Positions 31,787 to 41,597 are shown, counted from the first letter of the stretch. The stretch is DNA of 64,000 nucleotides from an uncultured Aminicenantes bacterium (GCA_965195285.1 CBDAFS010000031.1:64001-128000), one strand, 5' to 3'. Translations and numbers: made by a program. Notes: generated by a model from the letters alone, not told the origin.

Positions 31787-32169
31787 AGGAAAAAACCTAT
31801 TTGATATCGGCAGTGGCTTCTAAATATAATATCCATCCCCAAACCCTGCGTCTGTATGAGCGGGAGGGATTGTTGATTCCCAGCCGGACCAAAGGAAATA
31901 CCCGGGTATACAAAGAGGAGGATTTAAAAAAACTGGAATTTATATTGAATCTGTCCAGGGATATGGGTGTGAATCTGGCCGGAATCGAAATCATTCTCAA
32001 TATGAAGGAAAAAATGGAGTCCATGCAAGAGGAGTTTTCAAAGTTCCTCGAGGAACTCAAGAGGGAATTCGAAGATAAAGAAGCCCTGTTTGAAGAAAAG
32101 AAAAATTCCATCGTAAAGTTTTCACCCTCAAAGGTTACGATTTTCAGAAATGACAAAAAACAATCCTAG
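31783..32169 (+). CDS. hspR: HspR-like MerR family heat-shock regulator
   Basis: IHPQTLRLYEREGL.PSRTKGNTRVY and GVNLAGIEII; overlaps dnaJ. Confidence 0.88.
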   Translation: MKEKTYLISAVASKYNIHPQTLRLYEREGLLIPSRTKGNTRVYKEEDLKKLEFILNLSRDMGVNLAGIEIILNMKEKMESMQEEFSKFLEELKREFEDKEALFEEKKNSIVKFSPSKVTIFRNDKKQS

Positions 32170-32998
32170 GGAATCCCTGAATTCCCTGAACCTATATTTC
32201 CAAAAGATCAAGGGTATATCGATTTTAAATCCGGTTGAGGAAAAGGAATTGATTAAAAAAGCCAAGCAGGGGGATGAGGAGGCTTTTCAAAAAATCATCA
32301 TTGCCAATCAAAAATTGGTGGTGAAGGAAGCTTTAAAATATTACTTCAAAGAGGATAATCTGCTGGACCTGATCAATGAGGGCAATAAAGGATTAATCGA
32401 GGCCTTGAAGCGGTTTGATGTTACCAGGGATAATCGTTTTTATACCTATGCCCTGTGGTGGGTCAGGAGTGAGATTAGACGATATCTGTCCAAGAATCAG
32501 AATATTATTTCTTTCCCGGATATTTTTTATAATGATTATCTCAATTTTAAAAAAGCTTATTTCAAATTGAGCAAAATTTTAAACCGGAAGCCCAGCGAGA
32601 GTGAATTGGCAGAACATCTGGATATCCCTGAAAAAAAAGTGAAGGTCATGCTTTCGGTCCCGAATGAAATCGTTTCTCTTGATGTAGGGATCGCCGATGG
32701 CCGGTTTCCCAACCTGGCATCCTTTCTCCCGGATGATTCGGCTGATGATCCCCAGAAAATCATGCTGGGAATTTCAATGAAGAATGTCATCCGCGATGAT
32801 GTTGAGGAATTAACCGAAAAGGAAGCCCGGGTAATCAAGATGAGATTTGGTTTTAACACGGAAGAACCCATGAAATTGAGGGAAATTGCCAAAATCATGA
32901 AAATGAGCCCGGAGGGAGTGCGAAGAATTGAAATGAAGGCCCTGTCCAAATTGAAAAGAAAACTGATCAAGAAAGGAATTTATGGAGTTTTGAATTGA
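32150..32998 (+). CDS. Sigma-70 family RNA polymerase sigma factor (RpoD-like, lacking region 1.1)
   Basis: Region 2 DLINEGNKGLIEALKRFD...RFYTYALWWVR; region 3 SLD; region 4 LREIAKIMKMSPEGVRRIEMKAL; 282 aa. Confidence 0.93.
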   Translation: MTKNNPRESLNSLNLYFQKIKGISILNPVEEKELIKKAKQGDEEAFQKIIIANQKLVVKEALKYYFKEDNLLDLINEGNKGLIEALKRFDVTRDNRFYTYALWWVRSEIRRYLSKNQNIISFPDIFYNDYLNFKKAYFKLSKILNRKPSESELAEHLDIPEKKVKVMLSVPNEIVSLDVGIADGRFPNLASFLPDDSADDPQKIMLGISMKNVIRDDVEELTEKEARVIKMRFGFNTEEPMKLREIAKIMKMSPEGVRRIEMKALSKLKRKLIKKGIYGVLN

Positions 32999-33699
32999 GC
33001 CAGAAATTGTGTACAAAATGTAATGGAACCGGTTGGATCATAAAGAACAGGAAGGGCCAGGAATTTGCCATCCGGTGTGAATGCCAGGTCGAGGATTTGG
33101 TGCTGAATAAGTGCCAGTCGGCCAATATTCCCCAGAGATTTCTGGGAGCGGAATTGAAGGGTTATCAACTGGATCCTCAAAAACCTTCTCAGAAACGGGC
33201 CAAAAATACCGTTGGAAAATTTATTCAGGATTATCCGGCTGTGGAAAAGGGTTTGTTGTTGCAGGGTTCCATTGGCCTGGGCAAAACCAGGCTTCTCTGT
33301 TCTATAGGCTTTGAGCTGATAAAAAAAATGGATGTTGATGTGTACTATATTGACTGGAATGACCTGGTCAGGGAGATGAAAACCGGGGAAGATCATGCCA
33401 GCAGGGATTTTCAGGCTATTAATCAATTAATGAACCGTTTGATTGCGGTTGAATTGCTTTTATTCGATGAGCTGGGGGCTTCCAAAGTCAGCCCCTGGGT
33501 AAATGACAATATTTACTATGTGTTCAACAAGCGTTACAACCTGAAAAAAACGACGGTGTGTGCAACCAATTTTTATGATGATCCGTCCGATGGAAAAGAA
33601 TCACTGACCCAGCGAATCGGTGATCGAATCAGAAGCCGGTTGTATGAAATGGCCCGGGTTATTGAAATCAATGGAATTGATTACAGACTAAATTACTAA
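32995..33699 (+). CDS. DnaC/IstB-like AAA+ ATPase with N-terminal Zn-binding motif
   Basis: CTKCNGTG...CEC; GSIGLGKT Walker A; LLLFDELG Walker B; NKRYN; ATN; RIRSRLYEM. Confidence 0.88.
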   Translation: MSQKLCTKCNGTGWIIKNRKGQEFAIRCECQVEDLVLNKCQSANIPQRFLGAELKGYQLDPQKPSQKRAKNTVGKFIQDYPAVEKGLLLQGSIGLGKTRLLCSIGFELIKKMDVDVYYIDWNDLVREMKTGEDHASRDFQAINQLMNRLIAVELLLFDELGASKVSPWVNDNIYYVFNKRYNLKKTTVCATNFYDDPSDGKESLTQRIGDRIRSRLYEMARVIEINGIDYRLNY

Positions 33700-33711
33700 G
33701 AGGAGATTAAT

Positions 33712-34701
33712 ATGGATCCGGATATCACCTTCATCAATGAAAAAGTGAAAGAGGAAAGTGAAATTGTTGAAAGGATATTGTCAGAAATGGGAAAGACAAT
33801 TGTTGGCCAGAGAATCTTGCTGGAAAGGATGATGATTGCCCTGGTCACTTCCGGACACATTCTTCTGGAAGGTGTTCCGGGCCTGGCCAAAACCCTGTCC
33901 ATTAAAACCCTTTCCCAGGTACTGGATTTGAATTTCAGCCGGATTCAGTTTACTCCAGATTTATTGCCTGCCGATTTGACCGGAACCCTGGTTTTTAACC
34001 CCAAGACATCTGATTTCTATACCCGAAAGGGGCCGTTATTCACCAATCTCCTCCTGGCTGATGAAATCAACCGAGCCCCGGCAAAGGTGCAGAGTGCGCT
34101 GCTTGAGGCCATGCAAGAGTTGCAGGTGACCATCGGAGAGAAGAGTCATGAAATTGAGAAACCCTTTCTGGTGATGGCTACCCAGAACCCGATCGAACAA
34201 GAGGGGACCTATCCGTTGCCGGAAGCTCAGATAGACCGTTTTTTATTGAAGATAAAGGTGACATATCCGTCCAAAGAAGAGGAAAAGGATATCGTCACGA
34301 AAATGGCCGGATCAGAACCCCAGCCGGTCCAGACCATTTGTTCCAAGGATGAAGTCTTCAGAATGAATCAATCCTATAAAATGGTTTATATGGATGAGCG
34401 CATCAAGGATTACATCATTAATCTGGTTTTTGCTACCCGGTTTCCGGAGGAGGCCGGGCTGGAAAAATTGAAAAACCTGATTCAATTCGGGGCTTCGCCC
34501 AGGGCATCCATTTATTTAACTGAAACATCCAGGGCGCTGGCATTTATCAAGCGGCGGGGATACGTGACCCCGGAAGATGTCAAAACCATTGGAATGGATG
34601 TGTTGAGGCATCGCATTATTCTTTCTTATGAAGCTGAGGCCGAAGAAATGACCACCGATGACATTATAACCGAAATTTTCAATAATATTGTTGTGCCCTG
34701 A
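33712..34701 (+). CDS. moxR: MoxR family AAA+ ATPase
   Basis: LEGVPGLAKT, RIQFTPDLLPAD, LADEINRAPAKVQSALLEAM, ATQNPIEQEGTYPLPEAQIDRF. Confidence 0.96.
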   Translation: MDPDITFINEKVKEESEIVERILSEMGKTIVGQRILLERMMIALVTSGHILLEGVPGLAKTLSIKTLSQVLDLNFSRIQFTPDLLPADLTGTLVFNPKTSDFYTRKGPLFTNLLLADEINRAPAKVQSALLEAMQELQVTIGEKSHEIEKPFLVMATQNPIEQEGTYPLPEAQIDRFLLKIKVTYPSKEEEKDIVTKMAGSEPQPVQTICSKDEVFRMNQSYKMVYMDERIKDYIINLVFATRFPEEAGLEKLKNLIQFGASPRASIYLTETSRALAFIKRRGYVTPEDVKTIGMDVLRHRIILSYEAEAEEMTTDDIITEIFNNIVVP

Positions 34702-34717
34702 ACCAAGCCGGATACCA

Positions 34718-35149
34718 ATGGGGAAAAAAAAGAAACGAATACTTCAGAAGATCAATCCGGAAAAGTCCAACAAGATGATTTATGCAGTGGGTATCGGACT
34801 GGTGATCATTTTTACGGTTTTCTTCATTTTAATTAGCAGAGGAACCGATCCGGAAAATAAAAAGGAATTGCTTTCTGGGGTTTTGAGGTACTTAACCAAA
34901 ACCCAGGGTATAATCGATTTGGTGATATTACCTGAAAAGAACAATGTCCAAATCCGATATGACGGTCTGGACCGTAAAGATTTTTTTAAAATCACCACCT
35001 ATGCCGGTATCAAGCTTTCTTTGGAATTGAAGGGTGAAAAAATAAAGGTGGAACTCTTTCGAGACAATGAAAAACGGCCGGTCTATACGATTTTTTTAAA
35101 GAACGGAACCATTTTGAAAGAGGAGAGATCCATTCCGGCTGGGCAGTGA
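34718..35149 (+). CDS. Hypothetical single-pass membrane protein
   Basis: ATG 34718, basic N-terminus, one TM helix; follows moxR on the same strand. Confidence 0.7.
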   Translation: MGKKKKRILQKINPEKSNKMIYAVGIGLVIIFTVFFILISRGTDPENKKELLSGVLRYLTKTQGIIDLVILPEKNNVQIRYDGLDRKDFFKITTYAGIKLSLELKGEKIKVELFRDNEKRPVYTIFLKNGTILKEERSIPAGQ

Positions 35150-35194
35150 TCCCTGACCGGCTGGGGGTTCGGAAGTCCCGAATCACCACTTGAG

Positions 35195-35366
35195 TGTAGC
35201 GAATCGAAACACTCAAGATACAACTTTAAGCTTCTGAGTTGTTGCCTTTTGCCAATTTATTGTCCTCGAGTGTATCAAAATGGAACAATTTGATCAGTTA
35301 TCGATAGAGCAGTAATAAAAGTAACGTTGACCTGATTTACGGATTTGGCTGTAGCGATTTGCTACA
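35195..35366. promoter_or_regulatory. Three TGT-N11-ACA palindromes (putative enhancer sites for a sigma54 activator)
   Basis: TGTAGCGAATCGAAACA (35195), TGTATCAAAATGGAACA (35271), TGTAGCGATTTGCTACA (35350); spacing 76 and 79 bp. Confidence 0.75.
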
Positions 35367-35443
35367 CTTACATGATAATTGAAAATATAATCTGTTTCTG
35401 AAAAGCCTTTCCGGATAAGAAATTCCCTTCCTATTGCTTTTTT

Positions 35444-35458
35444 TGGAAAATAAATTGC
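35444..35458 (+). promoter_or_regulatory. Putative sigma54 (-24/-12) promoter
   Basis: TGGAAAATAAATTGC = GG-N10-GC, 94 bp downstream of the start of the last enhancer site. Confidence 0.68.
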
Positions 35459-35599
35459 TTGCTATTTATTATACGATTGCCTGAAATATTGTAAATCTGC
35501 TTGGTAGGAATTGGATATAAATTAATTTGATAACCGGAGGGTAAAATTATGCAGAAAGCAATGTTAAATCCAATAAAAATATCAAAAAGGAGAAATCAG

Positions 35600-36253
35600 A
35601 TGAAAAAAAAGGTTTTAAAACCGATTTTGGTTGTTTTGCTGGCGGTCTTTATTTTATCCGCCTGGTCAGGTCAGGCGTATGCCAGACTGGTTTATAATCA
35701 GGTTGATGGCTGCTTCGATGATACGGGCCGGCAGGCCATTCGAACTCACATTATTGAAGCGGCAGGCTATTTTCTGAAAGCCTATTCGGAGATTCTGGCC
35801 TTATCGGATCGTATCGAAATGTCGGATTTGAGCGGTATTGATTACTTTGAATCCCGGTTATTGGTTGACCAGGCGATTTTCAACCTGGAGAATGCCAGGG
35901 AGAAATATCTGATTCTGACTCAAATTGCAGCCAACACTCCTTATAACCCGGGAGTGATCAACAATTTGCTCATTTTCAATTATCGGGAATTCAGAGATAA
36001 TCAACAGTTAAAGGGGTTACAGTTTGATCAGGTCAAAAGTTTCCTGATGAATGGCGATGTCCGGGGGATATTTGATAAAGCGCTGGCCGATGTGGAAAAT
36101 ATCCTGGAAAGGCTGGACCGGGTAAAAATTGCCATTTATTCCCTTTCATTGCCTGAGATGTCAGATATTTGGGAATTGAACCGGCTGTGCTCCGAATTCA
36201 TGATGTTCGGGCAATATTCAGCCAGAATCTTTTATCGGGTCACTGGAAAATAA
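35600..36253 (+). CDS. Secreted alpha-helical hypothetical protein
   Basis: Sec signal MKKKVLKPILVVLLAVFILSAWSGQAYA after an AGGAG SD (the in-frame ATG 35549 also has an SD); amphipathic helical mature region with two Cys. Confidence 0.8.
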   Translation: MKKKVLKPILVVLLAVFILSAWSGQAYARLVYNQVDGCFDDTGRQAIRTHIIEAAGYFLKAYSEILALSDRIEMSDLSGIDYFESRLLVDQAIFNLENAREKYLILTQIAANTPYNPGVINNLLIFNYREFRDNQQLKGLQFDQVKSFLMNGDVRGIFDKALADVENILERLDRVKIAIYSLSLPEMSDIWELNRLCSEFMMFGQYSARIFYRVTGK

Positions 36254-36278
36254 TGTAAAATTGGTTTACTATTAAACG

Positions 36279-37616
36279 GTGAAAACTTTATACACCGTTT
36301 TTTTATTGGAACTCAGGAGGGTATTCAGTAAGCGAAATATTGTCATTTTAATCTTATTCCTGATGCTATGCCTGTATTTTGTTCAGGTAGGTATTCAGCA
36401 CTACCGGACCATCATTGATAACAAGGAGAAATTCCTGGAGACCGAACGCTTAAAAACCGATCTTTATATCACTTATTCCATGTATGCCGCTTATGGTTTT
36501 AGGCTTCAGTTTGTCCCCTCTCCTCTGAGTGTTTTGTTTGTTAATTCAACGGTAATATCAGAACTCTCATCCAATGTGGATGTGGCCAGTCTGTTGAATA
36601 TATACAAATCTTACAAGGGCAGGGTCCTGTTTGCTGAAAAGTCCGGGGGATTTAAAGATTTTTCCGGAATCATTCTCCTGTTTGGCACCATGATAGTGCT
36701 CTATCTGGGGTTTGAAACCTTCCTGAATAAAGACTATATTCGTTTTATATCCAGTTTTATTCAACCCAAAAAGTTGTTTTATTCCATTGTCGGGTCCCGA
36801 TTGTTGTTGCTTGTACTGTACTTTTTTTTCATGACCATCAGCTCGATTATTTTACTCGGGATAAACGGGATTCAGCTTTTGAAAAATGAATTCAGTCATC
36901 TCTATTATTATTTGCTGGTCATGGCCATAATGCTGGTTTTCTTTTTCATATTGGGTTTGGTTTCCGGAACCATAAAATCTCGATTTGCCGGATTTATCAT
37001 GGTGATTTCGGTATGGTTTATTTTTGTTTTTTTGATCCCCGGGGTCATTCAGTCCCTTATTGCCACCAGTGCAGAAAATATCACCTCCGGTTATGATCTG
37101 GAATTGAAAAAACTTCAGGCCCATATGGGTTTTGAAAAAAGAGCCATGGAGCAGGAAGGGGTTTTGCAGGATTCCCGAAAAAACACCCAGTCTGAAAGGG
37201 ATATAATGGAGAGCTATTGGAAAAATGAATTGAAAAAAATTCAAAGCCTGGAAAAAAACATGGAAAACGATATGAGAAAGAATATCAGGAATTTTCAAAG
37301 AATGTCCCTGATTGTTCCCTCCAGTTTTTATATATCGGTAAGCAATGAAATCAGCAGTCGGGGCTACAAGAATTTTGTTAATTTTTTCAGTTATTTGCAG
37401 AAGCTGAAGGAGGGATTTATTCGGTTTTACATTGATAAGCGCTTCTATTCCAATTTTTCAAAGGTTGAGTTGTATATCAAAGGCGAAGAAAATATTTATT
37501 ATTCCAGAAATCTCCTGCCGGATTTTTTTATATGGGGCGTGTGTTTAACCCTGCTTTACATCATGTCATTATTTATTTTTGCTTATTATCGGTTTAAAGG
37601 GTCTCTGGTGATATGA
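36279..37616 (+). CDS. ABC-2-like permease with large extracytoplasmic loops
   Basis: LELRRVF N-terminus; about 6 hydrophobic helices; long coiled-coil-like loop before the last TM; overlaps the following NBD gene. Confidence 0.75.
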   Translation: MKTLYTVFLLELRRVFSKRNIVILILFLMLCLYFVQVGIQHYRTIIDNKEKFLETERLKTDLYITYSMYAAYGFRLQFVPSPLSVLFVNSTVISELSSNVDVASLLNIYKSYKGRVLFAEKSGGFKDFSGIILLFGTMIVLYLGFETFLNKDYIRFISSFIQPKKLFYSIVGSRLLLLVLYFFFMTISSIILLGINGIQLLKNEFSHLYYYLLVMAIMLVFFFILGLVSGTIKSRFAGFIMVISVWFIFVFLIPGVIQSLIATSAENITSGYDLELKKLQAHMGFEKRAMEQEGVLQDSRKNTQSERDIMESYWKNELKKIQSLEKNMENDMRKNIRNFQRMSLIVPSSFYISVSNEISSRGYKNFVNFFSYLQKLKEGFIRFYIDKRFYSNFSKVELYIKGEENIYYSRNLLPDFFIWGVCLTLLYIMSLFIFAYYRFKGSLVI

Positions 37617-38305
37617 TCAGGATTGACAATCTGTTTTTAAAAAAGAAAATTCCCGAAATCAGTGATCTCAGTCTACAGGTGAAAGCCGGGGAAACGTTTG
37701 TATTGTTGTCCTCCGGTGAAAGGGTCAGCAACCATCTGATTAATATTTTTACCGGAAGGGAACGAGATTTTTCCGGGACTGTGAAGGTTGATCAACAAAA
37801 TATATTAAATGATCTGAAAGAACTCAGAAAAAACCTGGTTTATATAGGTAAGGAAAGCGACTGGCCTCCGGTGATCAGAATCAAAGATATCATGGGCTTT
37901 CTGAGGAGGATTACCCGCATTTCAGAGGAAGAGTACGAGGAATTCAAAATAAAAATGAATCTTGATCAATTGAACCGCTACCGGATCAATGACCTGGAAG
38001 AGGTGGAAAAACGTCGATTGTTGTTTTCAATTGTTCAGCTGGGCAAAAGCAACAATTTTGTAATCCATGACCTGGCCAAGGGTATGCCCATTGATTTTAT
38101 CCTGGAATTCAAGGAAAATATTCGCCAGTTGAAACAAAACGGCTGTTCAATACTCTATATCAGCGATGATGTTTTTTTTGCTCCTGAGATCGGGGATCGC
38201 ATTGGATTTTTGAAAAAAGGCAAGCTGTTACTGGAGCTAAAAGGAAGAAAAGTAAAACGGATGGACCTGAAGGAACTGTATTTCAGGTTTCTGGCCGAAG
38301 AATAA
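37613..38305 (+). CDS. Degenerate ABC transporter ATP-binding domain (probable pseudo-ATPase)
   Basis: NBD scaffold retained (IRIDNL, DLSLQVKAGE, SGTVKVD, GDRIGFLKKGKL, LKELY). The Walker A, signature, Walker B/D-loop and H-switch positions are all substituted. Confidence 0.78.
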   Translation: MIRIDNLFLKKKIPEISDLSLQVKAGETFVLLSSGERVSNHLINIFTGRERDFSGTVKVDQQNILNDLKELRKNLVYIGKESDWPPVIRIKDIMGFLRRITRISEEEYEEFKIKMNLDQLNRYRINDLEEVEKRRLLFSIVQLGKSNNFVIHDLAKGMPIDFILEFKENIRQLKQNGCSILYISDDVFFAPEIGDRIGFLKKGKLLLELKGRKVKRMDLKELYFRFLAEE

Positions 38306-38306
38306 G

Positions 38307-39536
38307 TCAGATTTCATCTTCTTCCTCAAAGGAATAAGCCAGGGAAAGAATGACTTCGGTACCCTTGGCGGAACTGTTTATGGTGATTTCTCCTCCCAGG
38401 GATTTCATTAATCCGTAACAGGTATATAATCCCAGACCGGTCCCTTCCTCCTTGGTGGTTTGAAAGGGTTGAAACAGTTTTTCCTTAAAGGATTTTGGGA
38501 TACCGGGACCTGTATCCCGGATAGATATGTTAAACAATTCATTCTCGGGAAGCTGATCCCTTCCGCTAATATAGGTGGAAATATGGATCTGGCCATCTTT
38601 TTTTCCGATGGCATCCACTGCGTTAAACAGGATATTGATCAATACCTGCTGCAATCTCTGGGCATCGGTTTTCACCAATAGGGGAGGGTCCAGGCTTTTG
38701 ATTAATTTTATATTCCTGGGGATTTTCAGAGCAATGGATTGGATGGTGTTGTCAATCAAATCAGGAAGTTCGATTTTGTTGATCTTTTTCTTTTCATGTT
38801 TTGAAAAACTCAGCAATGATTTAATAATATGATCGATGCGCTGGATCGACTGTTTCATGATGGCCAGTTCGTCCATGAAAGCTTCGGGGCCTAGGTTCCT
38901 TTTTTCGGTAAAATATTTGATATAGGTGGATATCCCGGCCAGGGGATTTTTGATTTCATGGGCAGCCGAGGCAGCCAGTTCACCCACCAGAGCCAGGCGA
39001 TCCATTCTGTAGATCCGGTAGTAATTGCGACTGTCATCAATGCGGGTTCTCTCGTAAGTGATCTGGGGAATTAATATATGGGATAATATGTTGAAAAACC
39101 GGGAAATCAGATTTATTTCCTTCAGGGTTTTTTTACTGGCCCCGATGACCGCAAAACCATTGAGGGTTCCCAATGACAGGAGGGGCACCACCACATCCAC
39201 GGCCAGTATTTCGAACAGCTCAGGGTTGGATTTCTTAAATATATTGATTTTGGCCGGTTTTTCTCTGGACATGATAATGGTAGTTTTGGTATTTTTTAGC
39301 TGAATCAAGAGATTGGATTTTTCGTTTATGGGATTCAGTTTTATCCGGGGAAAGCGATCGGAATAATAGGGTTTGAATTTGCTTTTTTCCTGGTTGATAT
39401 AAAACAGGGTAATACTCTCAAGTGGAAGCTGTTTGGACAGGAAATCCGGGAGTAGATCGAGGCTTTGCTCTGCATAATGAAGGGTATTCAACATCCCGAT
39501 CACTTCTTGCAGTTTTTTTAAATAATCTCTGTTCAT
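38307..39536 (-). CDS. Soluble sensor histidine kinase (GAF-like N-domain, NtrB-type HisKA/HATPase)
   Basis: LAASAAHEIKNPL H-box, QVLINILFNA, DTGPGI, FQPFQTTK, GTGLGL; no clear TM helix. Confidence 0.93.
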   Translation of the reverse strand: MNRDYLKKLQEVIGMLNTLHYAEQSLDLLPDFLSKQLPLESITLFYINQEKSKFKPYYSDRFPRIKLNPINEKSNLLIQLKNTKTTIIMSREKPAKINIFKKSNPELFEILAVDVVVPLLSLGTLNGFAVIGASKKTLKEINLISRFFNILSHILIPQITYERTRIDDSRNYYRIYRMDRLALVGELAASAAHEIKNPLAGISTYIKYFTEKRNLGPEAFMDELAIMKQSIQRIDHIIKSLLSFSKHEKKKINKIELPDLIDNTIQSIALKIPRNIKLIKSLDPPLLVKTDAQRLQQVLINILFNAVDAIGKKDGQIHISTYISGRDQLPENELFNISIRDTGPGIPKSFKEKLFQPFQTTKEEGTGLGLYTCYGLMKSLGGEITINSSAKGTEVILSLAYSFEEEDEI

Positions 39537-39580
39537 TCTAACCTGATCCCGGGCTCAATTATATCTCCCTTGGGGGTTTG

Positions 39581-40927
39581 TCACTGTTGTTTTCGGTTCA
39601 TATCAATTTGGTCCATTTTTCGATACAACCGGGTTCTGGATATTCCGAGAATTTTAGCTGTTTTGGTGACATTGAAATTGTGCAATTCGAGAACCTTTTT
39701 AATGTATTGGTACTCATAATCCCTGAGTGACAGCTGATAATTTTCAGTCATTTCTTCATGGATGTTCAGAGAAAGAATGAGGTCATTGGGGGTGATGAGA
39801 TCATCGTCTTTATAGGCAAAAATTCCCTTTACCGCATTTTTTAACTCCCTGACATTTCCCTCCCATGAGTATTCCAGCAGGTGTTTTTCAGTTTTTTTGG
39901 ATATGCCTTTGATATTTTTATCATATATATTGTTGTAAAAAGAAATAAAATGATGGAAGAGCGGTAAGATATCCTCTTTGCGCTCCCGCAAGGGGGGAAT
40001 GGTAATCATGGTTTCTCTGAGTCTGAAGTATAAATCCTTGCGGAAACGATCCGCTCCGACCTCCTTCCAGAGGTCCTTGTTGGTAGCCGTGATCAGCCGG
40101 ACATCTAATTTCTGGGGATTTTTATTTCCCAGCTGGTAGATGATTTTATCATCCAGAATTCGGAGTAATTTGGCCTGAAGGTTCAGGGGCATGTCGCTGA
40201 TTTCGTCCAGGAAGAGGGTTCCCTGGTTGGCCTGTAAGAATCTCCCGCTGTAGTCTTTTGATGCGCCGGTAAATGCTCCCCTTTTGAAGCCGAACAATTC
40301 CGATTCAAACAGTTGTTCGGGAATAGTCGAACAATTTATGGGCAGAAAAGTCTTGTTTTTTCGTTTTGAGTTTCGATGGACGAAACTGGCGATGATTTCT
40401 TTTCCCACCCCGGTTTCTCCCTGGATAACGATGATATCTTCCGTTTTGGATAGTTTTGTTGCCTGCGTAATGATATCAGACATGGCCTGGCTTTTGTAGA
40501 TGATGGCTTCCGATGACTGGTTATACAGCAGTTCTTTTTTCAGGGATATGTTCTTTTCCTTCAAGTGGGAATATTCAATAATTTTTTTCATTTGAATAAA
40601 CAGCAAATCTTCATCAAGCGGTTTTTCAAGATAATAAAAAGCCCCATTTTTTATGGCTTCGACAGCGCTGGAAACTGTAGCATGAGCGGTAATGATGATG
40701 GTTTTCCCCTCCATTTTTTCCGGAAATTCTTTCAGGAGATTGATGCCGTTGTTATCCGGAAGTCTTAAATCCAGTATGAATATAGCATATTCTCCGTTTG
40801 ATACTTTCCTTTTGGCAGTTTGGTAGTCTTCCGCCTCATCAATCATATAATCTCTCAATTCCAGTAATTTTTTCAGAGAATTTCTAAGTGACAGCTCATC
40901 TTCAATAATCAATACCCGAACGCTCAT
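39581..40927 (-). CDS. Sigma54-dependent response regulator (NtrC/AtoC family: REC-AAA+-Fis HTH)
   Basis: IIEDE and LDLRLPD receiver; GETGVGKE; ESELFG; intact GAFTGA; LFLDEI; WEGNVREL; TAKILGISRTRLYRK. Confidence 0.97.
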   Translation of the reverse strand: MSVRVLIIEDELSLRNSLKKLLELRDYMIDEAEDYQTAKRKVSNGEYAIFILDLRLPDNNGINLLKEFPEKMEGKTIIITAHATVSSAVEAIKNGAFYYLEKPLDEDLLFIQMKKIIEYSHLKEKNISLKKELLYNQSSEAIIYKSQAMSDIITQATKLSKTEDIIVIQGETGVGKEIIASFVHRNSKRKNKTFLPINCSTIPEQLFESELFGFKRGAFTGASKDYSGRFLQANQGTLFLDEISDMPLNLQAKLLRILDDKIIYQLGNKNPQKLDVRLITATNKDLWKEVGADRFRKDLYFRLRETMITIPPLRERKEDILPLFHHFISFYNNIYDKNIKGISKKTEKHLLEYSWEGNVRELKNAVKGIFAYKDDDLITPNDLILSLNIHEEMTENYQLSLRDYEYQYIKKVLELHNFNVTKTAKILGISRTRLYRKMDQIDMNRKQQ

Positions 40928-41007
40928 AACAAAATTATATAAGATTAAAATTAAAATTCAATTGATTAGACGGACAAAATCGGATTTTAGATTTATGACT
41001 GAAAATA

Positions 41008-41177
41008 TGTTTCAAAACGCAACAATTTTATAGAGGGTCAGAAGGCTTGGTGTTGCGGCCAATTCTGGATATTCGCGGAAAAAGCGTATCGAAACGATAC
41101 ATTCCGAGTATATCAAAAAAGCTATATATATGGGTGATTTTGAAAGAAATGAAAAAATGGTGTTTCATTCTTGGACA
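41008..41177. promoter_or_regulatory. Second triplet of (T/C)GT-N11-ACA palindromes
   Basis: TGTTTCAAAACGCAACA (41008), CGTATCGAAACGATACA (41085), TGTTTCATTCTTGGACA (41161); spacing 77 and 76 bp. Confidence 0.72.
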
Positions 41178-41250
41178 AAATAAAAAAAAATTATTTTTTC
41201 AAACATCTCGAACCCCTTTTCTGTAGCGTAATTGGGCTTATATGCTTAAC

Positions 41251-41265
41251 TGGAAAACATATTGC
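41251..41265 (+). promoter_or_regulatory. Putative sigma54 (-24/-12) promoter
   Basis: TGGAAAACATATTGC = GG-N10-GC, 90 bp downstream of the start of the last enhancer site; 13/15 identical to the 35444 box. Confidence 0.68.
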
Positions 41266-41342
41266 TATATTATTTATTTTGGTAATGACAGCATTCAGGA
41301 GTTTGAGGCATGAAGTCGTTGAAAGAGAAAAATTATTGAAAA

Positions 41343-41597
41343 ATGAGAAGAAAGGAAATTATTGAAAAAGAATATTATAGAGTTCATAAGGATCATGTTT
41401 TTTTCAATGGTTTTTTTACCCGGGAGAAACTGATAGTCTTGATCGATTTAAAGGAAAAAGAAGGCTGGAGTTATATGGGGGACAAGGATATTCTTAAAAT
41501 CGGCAGTTTTGGAATGGGTCTGGGGGATTCAGATATTTATCATCCCAGGATCGTGGCGGTTTTCGAGCGGAACCCTGTTCTACCTGAAACCAGATAG
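41343..41597 (+). CDS. Small hypothetical protein, DUF4177-like
   Basis: EY...L......EGW.........AVFER pattern resembles DUF4177; lies downstream of the sigma54 box. Confidence 0.6.
   Translation: MRRKEIIEKEYYRVHKDHVFFNGFFTREKLIVLIDLKEKEGWSYMGDKDILKIGSFGMGLGDSDIYHPRIVAVFERNPVLPETR

Follow-up and report, generated by a model that had tools for sequence, protein, structure and literature searches.

The stretch analysed here is a 64,000-nucleotide window of DNA, read on one strand, from an uncultured Aminicenantes bacterium (GCA_965195285.1, CBDAFS010000031.1:64001-128000), and our subject is a unit of five genes within it, in which a three-gene operon for a secreted protein, a permease of the ATP-binding cassette (ABC) type and a nucleotide-binding domain (NBD) without catalytic motifs converges on a two-gene operon for a histidine kinase and a sigma-54 activator. 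The source genome is a 3.28-Mb assembly of 62 contigs, 94.9% complete, and the sequencing runs that contain window DNA are labelled marine sediment and cold seep. The genes discussed below, with the names used for them, are the following.

35600-36253, + strand: SEC, 217 aa (234 aa from the alternative start 35549), predicted signal-peptide periplasmic four-helix-bundle protein
36279-37616, + strand: PERM, 445 aa, NosY-like type V ABC membrane domain with 6 transmembrane (TM) segments; 4-bp overlap with the NBD gene
37613-38305, + strand: NBD (pseudo-NBD), 230 aa, ABC ATPase fold, all catalytic motifs lost
38307-39536, - strand: HK, 409 aa, soluble histidine kinase with a weakly GAF-like N-domain of ~170 aa, HisKA and HATPase_c
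39581-40927, - strand: RR, 448 aa, NtrC-type response regulator and sigma-54 activator (REC, AAA+ with GAFTGA, HTH_8)
41343-41597, + strand: small gene, 84 aa, genus-restricted, no named family, in the same putative regulon

The NBD and HK genes run tail to tail, and their stop codons are 1 bp apart. This anatomy, namely a secreted helical protein, an ABC-2-like permease and a motif-less NBD placed 1 bp from a convergent kinase and activator operon, had been described in an original prediction made from the sequence alone, and was confirmed here. For SEC, the start at 35600 is likelier than that at 35549, because homologues begin at residue 18 or later.

Relatives of the unit were searched for with the NBD, the permease and the kinase N-domain, and their flanking DNA was fetched to give 51 unique loci, in which the open reading frames (ORFs) of the flanks were called with a simple script of our own and proteins were recognised by phmmer/hmmsearch against the window proteins and family profiles. 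In the split form of the module, where SEC, PERM and NBD are separate genes, 33 unique loci from 9 genera were found, all in one Aminicenantes family, and an HK/RR pair lies within 5 kb of the module in 30/33 of these loci and in 8/9 genera, so that for the split form the predicted linkage between module and kinase/activator pair survived its test. The pair, or its remnant at a contig end, stands tail to tail behind NBD in 27/33 split loci (in one of them with a hybrid kinase gene between), is convergent at a distance of 1.3-2.3 kb in two others (L132 and L133) and divergent at 3.4 kb in one (L125); it is absent from the fetched DNA of the three remaining loci, L030 and L031 (genome G007) and L039. 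By their N-domains, the split-locus kinases are all orthologues of one another, and they have no membrane-spanning segment. What lies in the window is, in short, a conserved five-gene unit of one Candidatus Aminicenantes family. A separate observation in G007 is a close RR-HK orthologue without an adjoining module (L130:7715-16534), which stands tail to tail with a gene for a non-ribosomal peptide synthetase (NRPS) of 1988 aa. In locus L074 (2786-6839) and in other loci of the same genus, the region upstream of SEC holds a soluble PAS-GAF-PAS hybrid kinase of 820 aa, a CarboxypepD_reg-domain protein and a stand-alone receiver gene; in the largest genus, a stand-alone receiver gene lies directly upstream of SEC in 9/14 loci, and the soluble 820-aa hybrid kinase is placed further upstream.

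A fused form, in which PERM and NBD make up one protein of 640-680 aa that is always accompanied by SEC, was found in 18 loci, including records labelled Deferrimicrobium and Omnitrophota, and none of these loci (0/18) has an HK/RR pair. In 11/18, one or two genes of the XRE-type HTH class (~150 aa) occur within five genes of the module, and Pfam HTH_3/HTH_19 confirmed the assignment on six such proteins from four fused loci. Large genomes have up to 6-7 fused paralogues each (L033-L046, L060, L063-L069), and we also observed that the ~150-aa XRE-type proteins encoded beside them share a conserved C-terminal half and that unnamed neighbours of 125-144 aa and of ~230 aa recur. The kinase N-domain was detected in 30/72 family genomes, and it was not found in four genomes that have fused forms only, nor in eight genera that lack the module, with limited sensitivity in one GC-rich genus.

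Forty-six permease domains (28 split and 18 fused, with 5 split rows cut by contig ends or frameshifts omitted) were placed in a maximum-likelihood tree with an arbitrary root. It shows two deep clades (100/100), the first with 20 split and 2 fused forms and the second with the split clade of the window (7 rows, 96/98) and L086 among 16 fused forms; the split/fused label needs 2-3 changes on the tree. The window's clade has its two regulatory genes in the order RR-HK, the other deep clade has them as HK-RR, and both keep the tail-to-tail junction with NBD.

By its sequence, the NBD is a conserved pseudo-enzyme under purifying selection. Pfam ABC_tran reaches 21.2 bits on the window protein, under the 25-bit cut-off, and the motifs themselves are gone when the protein is aligned with L047, a genuine NBD of the same class: the Walker A position reads LLSSGERVS rather than GANGAGKTT, and the P-loop lysine is missing; the signature position reads LEEVEKRRL rather than FSKGMRQKL; Walker B is VIHDLAKGMP rather than LLLDEPTAGLD, with the Asp kept and the catalytic Glu replaced by Leu; and the H-loop is ISDD rather than STHD, with the switch His replaced by Asp. 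In all 19 aligned family members, the window and 18 relatives, the Walker A lysine, the signature, the Walker B Glu and the H-loop His are missing. The fold and homology are nonetheless those of PF00005, and the family profile (A4) matches 185 PDB sequences of NBDs, best among them ABCA3 (E 3.4e-16) and a sulfate/molybdate NBD (4.1e-16); ABCA1, ABCA4, ABCG and many importer NBDs are also matched. The best NCBIfam match is a lantibiotic-protection ABC ATPase family, at 36.6 against a cut-off of 309.75 bits. Outside the window's family, class members have NBDs that match at 21-24% identity, and the one checked (L047) is an ordinary motif-bearing protein.

Within the family, the ratio of non-synonymous to synonymous substitution rates (dN/dS) of the NBD is 0.16 (L074/L075) and 0.19 (L077/L078) in two unsaturated orthologue pairs, and between the window and its congener the proportions of non-synonymous and synonymous differences are 0.10 (pN) and 0.83 (pS). 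Invariant non-catalytic residues are kept, including Y223 and L227 in alignment A4. The family-wide loss of motifs, taken together with these dN/dS values, therefore argues against decay unique to this genome, which had been named beforehand as an outcome that would count against the proposed module. In addition, a C-terminal segment of ~28 residues (GFxKxGxL ... MDLKxLYxKFL) is kept in 33/33 split NBDs and is absent in 17/18 of the kinase-less fused forms, with L033 as the one that keeps it; Y223 and L227 belong to this segment.

PERM has 6 hydrophobic segments in a hydrophobicity scan. The window protein itself has no Pfam match even at E<=5, but PF12679 (ABC2_membrane_2) is precomputed on many of its homologues, and some sources give them NosY-like names. 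The AlphaFold model (pLDDT 85.6) superposes on NosY with Z 18.7-20.6, in the best case Z 20.6 with a root mean square deviation of 2.8 A over 243 of 250 residues, on the membrane domains of ABCG and ABCA proteins with Z 14-17 (ABCG25, Z 17.3), and on KpsM, Wzm and TarG with Z 10-12; Foldseek alone gave NosY a probability of 1.0 but an E of 0.027. As modelled, the protein is a type V ABC membrane domain, with the six-TM fold, the N-terminus inside and the TM1-TM2 loop. From the six segments and the positive-inside pattern, residues 39-126 and 268-415 are predicted to be periplasmic; in the fused proteins, TM6 leads straight into the NBD, in agreement with this topology. The loop 39-126 has a conservation of 0.61, compared with 0.47-0.55 for most TM helices, and is among the best-conserved parts of the protein.

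SEC begins with a signal-peptide-like hydrophobic N-terminus ending in AYA, and its model (pLDDT 94.6) is an all-helical, up-down four-helix bundle of 22 kDa. Its family counts 736 representative clusters at E<=1e-3 in a library of 1.84 billion proteins, and the protein Atlas returned unnamed clusters only, with scores up to 0.78; Pfam, NCBIfam and PADLOC named no family for SEC, PERM, the 84-aa protein or the small peptides. A fold search with SEC placed de novo designs at the top, at Z 12-14, and gave sensor domains such as the ligand-binding domain of a methyl-accepting chemotaxis protein, LytS-N and TorS at Z ~10; these are generic bundle matches in a range that is uninformative for helical bundles, and we do not claim a chemoreceptor-like ligand domain. 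Every fused locus (18/18, all without a kinase) and every split locus with upstream DNA (27/27) encodes SEC together with the permease. This is the pattern of a fixed subunit, and a resident periplasmic component in a NosD-like position is a better reading of SEC than a diffusible autoinducer.

HK has the domains of a class I histidine kinase (HisKA, 7.8e-13; HATPase_c, 1.5e-21), and in alignment A5 H193 and the G-box residues are invariant. No membrane-spanning segment was found in the window protein or in the 13 orthologues scanned, as had been predicted. A crude scan flags one hydrophobic stretch, residues 106-124 (score 1.63), which is absent in 9/13 orthologues and is read as a buried strand. 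The best NCBIfam matches of the kinase, AtoS and ZraS, are below cut-offs, and the PrsK alignment spans residues 32-399. The N-domain, described beforehand as GAF-like, may resemble GAF domains weakly: its profile (A6) matches those of PtsP (3trc, E 0.0047; 3ci6, E 0.073), and no Pfam match was obtained at E<=5. The activator has the architecture of the NtrC class (Response_reg, 1.9e-22; Sigma54_activat, 5.8e-63; HTH_8, 6.2e-13), with GAFTGA in the translation; its best NCBIfam matches, PrsR, NtrC and AtoC, are below cut-offs (PrsR, 360 vs 502.6 bits). Prediction of a complex between HK and the pseudo-NBD, from alignments A5 and A4, scored 0.31 against a mark of 0.32 without folded controls, which speaks neither for nor against binding.

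Both ends of the locus carry the promoter design that the original prediction had placed there, an enhancer region followed by a sigma-54 promoter, each with three upstream sites, of which one before the second promoter is imperfect. All elements below were read in the sequence and, except for the imperfect site, also recovered by a genome-wide scan.

35195..35211, + strand: upstream activator site 1, TGTAGCGAATCGAAACA, at -249 from the operon promoter
35271..35287, + strand: upstream activator site 2, TGTATCAAAATGGAACA, at -173 from the operon promoter
35350..35366, + strand: upstream activator site 3, a palindrome, TGTAGCGATTTGCTACA, at -94 from the operon promoter
35444..35459, + strand: sigma-54 type -24/-12 promoter of the three-gene operon, TGGAAAATAAATTGCT
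41008..41024, + strand: upstream activator site, TGTTTCAAAACGCAACA, at -243 from the second promoter
41085..41101, + strand: imperfect site, CGTATCGAAACGATACA, CGT-N11-ACA, at -166 from the second promoter, missed by the strict pattern
41161..41177, + strand: upstream activator site, TGTTTCATTCTTGGACA, at -90 from the second promoter
41251..41266, + strand: sigma-54 type promoter of the 84-aa gene, TGGAAAACATATTGCT

Sigma-54 promoters are marked by GG at -24 and GC at -12, a constant distance apart, the consensus being TGGCAC-N5-TTGCW. Each of the two window promoters has the GG/GC -24/-12 element and three 17-bp sites of the TGT-N11-ACA type at about -92, -170 and -245, and rpoN is present in the genome (contig C53); TGGAAAATAAATTGCT and TGGAAAACATATTGCT are thus predicted sigma-54 promoters. 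A search of the 3.28-Mb genome for YGG-N9-TGCW accompanied, within 320 bp, by two or more half-specified sites left only 5 of 1457 promoter-like matches, compared with 0 of 333 in the reversed genome and 0-2 in ten 500-bp block shuffles, and all 5 have a site at -87 to -94. From its position between both promoters we infer that the window activator binds the TGT-N11-ACA sites and drives them.

Besides the operon, promoters of this design precede small genes, a likely peptide-modification cassette and one gap without a convincing ORF. The 84-aa gene, for which a DUF4177-like label had been proposed, has no Pfam match at E<=5, which leaves that label without support, and has homologues in two congeners only. 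A monocistronic 67-aa gene on contig C15 of the source genome, G000 (L070:7320-7523, - strand), beginning MNETKKKKWEKPEL with a Lys-rich N-terminus followed by KPEL, stands behind the same design; it has homologues in both congeners, placed in L028 between the promoter and the homologue of the 84-aa gene, and both congeners repeat the promoter and site design before their homologues of the 67-aa and 84-aa genes. On contig C45 (L072:5007-6969), the sigma-54 promoter TGGCATTTAAAATGCT with two TGT-N11-ACA sites is followed, ~500 bp downstream, by a 79-aa ORF ending NVANGG-CGIGCW and then by a radical SAM/SPASM enzyme similar to PapB (E 9e-49, which does not reach the cut-off of that family); this is likely to be a cassette for a ribosomally synthesised and post-translationally modified peptide (RiPP) in the same putative regulon. 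The fifth such promoter, on contig C39 (L071:6560-7500, - strand), has etfA on one side and a 200-aa gene on the other; the gap between them, 940 bp long, contains no convincing ORF, and the promoter could drive a small peptide or RNA; purH-like and maf-like genes lie between it and the nearest other activator. Among the relatives, a -24/-12 element precedes SEC in 5/5 loci of the window's clade that have upstream DNA, and the module of L030 is directly preceded by a sigma-54 promoter of canonical form, a GG-leader Cys peptide of 62 aa and a radical SAM enzyme resembling CcpM. A loose scan of five relatives (TGT-N11-ACA, gap, TGG-N9-TGC) gave mostly noise, with a control pattern that matched as well, and only the sites of the same genus looked real.

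Some further observations concern the expression of the locus. A sigma-70-like match, TTGAAT-16-TATAAT, lies at 40934-40961 (- strand), just upstream of RR and inside the enhancer region of the divergent 84-aa gene, and may be the basal promoter of the RR-HK operon; across the locus, the scan for sigma-70 promoters and terminators was not above shuffles (18 found vs 17.4 expected, and 9 vs 6.8). Contigs from two metatranscriptome runs of one study cover parts of SEC, PERM, NBD, HK, RR and the 84-aa gene at at least 99% identity, and this evidence is weak because DNA carry-over is not excluded; strand and transcript ends cannot be read from the contigs, and the parts they leave uncovered are uninformative. 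In one such contig (run X8), 35269-35356 is linked to 35369-35587 from the opposite strand, in the region of the palindromic upstream sites, a junction that is probably an assembly artefact.

Two known systems come close to this unit, NosDFY by structure and the Bce-type modules by logic, and the unit fails defining features of both. Like NosDFY(L), which serves nitrous-oxide reductase maturation (PDB 7o0y, 7znq, 7qba), it has the three-part layout of a periplasmic protein, an ABC-2 permease and an NBD; the PERM model superposes best on NosY (Z 20.6), and homologues of the permease share NosY's Pfam family, PF12679. According to the titles of the PDB entries, the solved complexes of NosY contain the periplasmic partner NosD. 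The window permease, however, has ~200 extra periplasmic residues, and there are no nos genes near the three-gene operon, which is linked to a sigma-54 two-component pair instead. The NosF ATPase is active and NosD is not known as a four-helix bundle, whereas the window NBD has no catalytic motifs and SEC is such a bundle; the unit is therefore no member of the NosDFY group as defined by an active NosF, a NosD-type partner and a nos context. Structural work of 2022 reportedly found that NosFY serves a docked periplasmic partner rather than solute pumping. In Bce-type modules of Firmicutes (BceAB-BceRS, YvcPQRS, YxdJKLM), as one account (PMC3023708) describes them, an ABC complex is paired with a two-component system whose kinase has no sensing domain and whose target is the transporter operon. 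The window module differs from them, its permease being NosY-type with 6 TM segments, its NBD dead, its kinase soluble and its regulator of the NtrC type with sigma-54. In the Bce modules, the transporter acts as a co-sensor, the permease is of the FtsX type with 10 TM segments and a large extracellular domain, signalling depends on an active NBD, the kinase BceS is embedded in the membrane and BceR is a sigma-70-dependent regulator of the OmpR type. Hence the FtsX permease, the active NBD, the intramembrane-sensing kinase and the OmpR-type regulator that would place the unit among Bce-type modules are all missing from it.

The two regulatory proteins resemble the NtrB/NtrC class (AtoSC, ZraSR, PrsKR) in their domain orders, HisKA-HATPase_c and REC-AAA+(GAFTGA)-HTH_8, and in the palindromic TGT...ACA upstream sites with a GG/GC -24/-12 promoter; they differ from it in NCBIfam scores below cut-offs, in a kinase without a membrane domain and in having an ATPase-dead ABC module as conserved partner. 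ABC proteins with one degenerate site (CFTR, TM287/288 and heterodimeric type I exporters) are likewise conserved despite lost catalytic motifs, but they keep one competent site and still cycle ATP, whereas the sole NBD of the window has no P-loop and its homodimer would have no such site at all. Titles and abstract openings returned by a literature search held no description of an all-degenerate ABC module tied to a sigma-54 pair, nor of this Aminicenantes unit.

How could such a unit work? We lean tentatively towards an ABC-like complex that acts as co-sensor for the soluble kinase, with the logic of a Bce module and the chassis of NosDFY without use of ATP. An ATP cycle requires a P-loop, which the complex does not have, and hence it would not be a pump. 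The SEC bundle and the periplasmic domains of the permease would bind a cue in the envelope or outside the cell, for which peptide products of the same regulon would be the best candidates; the NosY-like membrane domain would pass the change inward to the dimer of pseudo-NBDs; the dimer would modulate the kinase, which itself lacks a membrane sensor; and the feedback loop would close through sigma-54. Should a feedback signal exist, the small peptide genes and the radical SAM RiPP cassette are better candidates for it than SEC. The co-sensor is slightly favoured because the tail-to-tail junction persists across the swap in gene order, because the kinase has no membrane domain, and because the C-terminal segment of the NBD tracks the presence of the kinase.

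Several points weigh against a co-sensor, and we acknowledge them here together. No result shows contact between pseudo-NBD and kinase or the transfer of a signal, both of which are inferred. Regulators are common beside their target operons and need no co-sensing; the kinase N-domain could bind a cytoplasmic ligand; and in the loci of one genus the soluble PAS-GAF-PAS hybrid kinase could be the real sensor. As 18 fused loci keep SEC and the permease/pseudo-NBD without a kinase, the core function of the module is kinase-independent. In genome G007, the two modules of the close type and the two HK/RR pairs of that type (L130, L131) are on different contigs, and the loci are not independent, 14/33 split loci being from a single genus. 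The strict pattern of promoter plus sites precedes SEC in 7/27 split loci only and in 0/18 fused loci, and in the largest genus there is only a conserved TGGAARCCAGYGTGC element ~530-575 bp upstream, in 5/10 loci. Finally, the assignment of the sites to the window activator is positional only, because the genome encodes ~14 sigma-54 activators.

The nearest competitor, which we also regard as a serious possibility, is that the module is a regulated effector and nothing else: the kinase would sense a cytoplasmic cue through its N-domain, and the activator would switch on the module and the peptide genes, with no feedback on the kinase. The ATPase-dead complex could then have a role of its own in the envelope, for example by sequestering the peptides that the cell makes or giving immunity to them, or by serving as a scaffold for some process in the periplasm. 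This explanation stays close to the co-sensor because the kinase-less fused subfamily, beside its XRE-type HTH genes, shows that the module can work alone. It also draws on the peptide natural-product genes found nearby or in the regulon (radical SAM/SPASM enzymes in L030 and L033, NRPS genes in L060 and next to the L130 kinase, as well as the RiPP cassette), on the lantibiotic-protection family that is the best, if far below cut-off, NCBIfam match of the NBD, and on the weak resemblance of the kinase N-domain to ligand-binding GAF domains. It leaves unexplained, however, the kinase/pseudo-NBD junction that is kept tail to tail in two deep clades with swapped order, as well as the link of the C-terminal NBD segment with the presence of the kinase; moreover, to our knowledge, the known immunity ABC systems need ATP.

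A more far-reaching version of the co-sensor, which we consider possible though rather doubtful, is that an ABC transporter was turned into an ATP-independent transmembrane receptor, in which the NosY-like domain and SEC would sense the cell's own radical SAM or other peptides and the dead NBD dimer would dock and gate the soluble sigma-54 kinase; on this view, the paralogues of the fused form, which have no kinase, would be that receptor with other outputs.

That the module is still a transporter, with a structural pseudo-NBD and with energy from an active NBD in trans or from ion gradients, or with non-canonical nucleotide binding, seems improbable to us. The fold of its membrane domain is indeed fully that of a type V ABC exporter (NosY, Z 20.6; ABCG25, Z 17.3), and the genome has at least 10 other ABC NBD-like genes. 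Against this, the dead NBD is covalently attached in the fused forms, so that both NBD positions of a dimer would be filled by dead domains; no gene for an active NBD is conserved as a neighbour of the module; and Walker A, the signature, the Walker B Glu and the H-loop are all missing in every aligned member. Even less credit can be given to the version first proposed, in which SEC leaves the cell as a protein autoinducer, returns, binds the permease and signals to the kinase. A signal peptide and expression from the very promoter that the system would control do speak for it, but it agrees least with the data: SEC, a four-helix bundle of 22 kDa, stands beside the permease in 18/18 kinase-less fused and 27/27 split loci, and the closest solved relative of the permease carries a resident periplasmic partner. 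That the module is the decaying, non-functional remnant of an ABC transporter, as the loss of every catalytic motif might suggest, is scarcely credible and is already contradicted by the conservation seen in the sequences, namely intact frames in 44/71 family genomes, dN/dS of 0.16-0.19 and retained invariant non-catalytic residues, to which the gene fragments in metatranscriptome contigs add weakly, as DNA carry-over is possible.

ABC complexes that aid the sensing of a kinase (Bce-like) or move a periplasmic partner (NosDFY) were known already, and both burn ATP. In the present case, a whole family keeps a NosFY-like chassis under selection after the loss of every ATPase motif, and in 30/33 loci of one of its branches the chassis is tied to a kinase without a membrane domain and to a sigma-54 activator. 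If the complex signals, ABC architecture could transmit information from outside to inside without nucleotide, which would be a new use of it, and there would be a first handle on how Aminicenantes, an uncultured lineage widespread in sediments, control their peptide natural products; if it is indeed a receptor, this would be a circuit of peptide quorum sensing or autoinduction with a pseudo-ABC receptor in an uncultured phylum. Even as an effector only, the module would clearly exemplify an ABC pseudo-enzyme that has been conserved. The small size of the unit allows it to be rebuilt in a laboratory host with a sigma-54 reporter.

As for the surroundings of the unit, the Pfam scan found thioredoxin and PNPOx-like genes among the neighbours of the module besides the kinase and activator. 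On the 5' side of the unit, window positions 32150-35149 hold four genes, none of which recurs beside the module in other loci; they encode a sigma-70 family protein of 282 aa, an IstB/DnaA-like ATPase of 234 aa, a MoxR AAA+ protein of 329 aa and a 153-aa protein with one hydrophobic segment.

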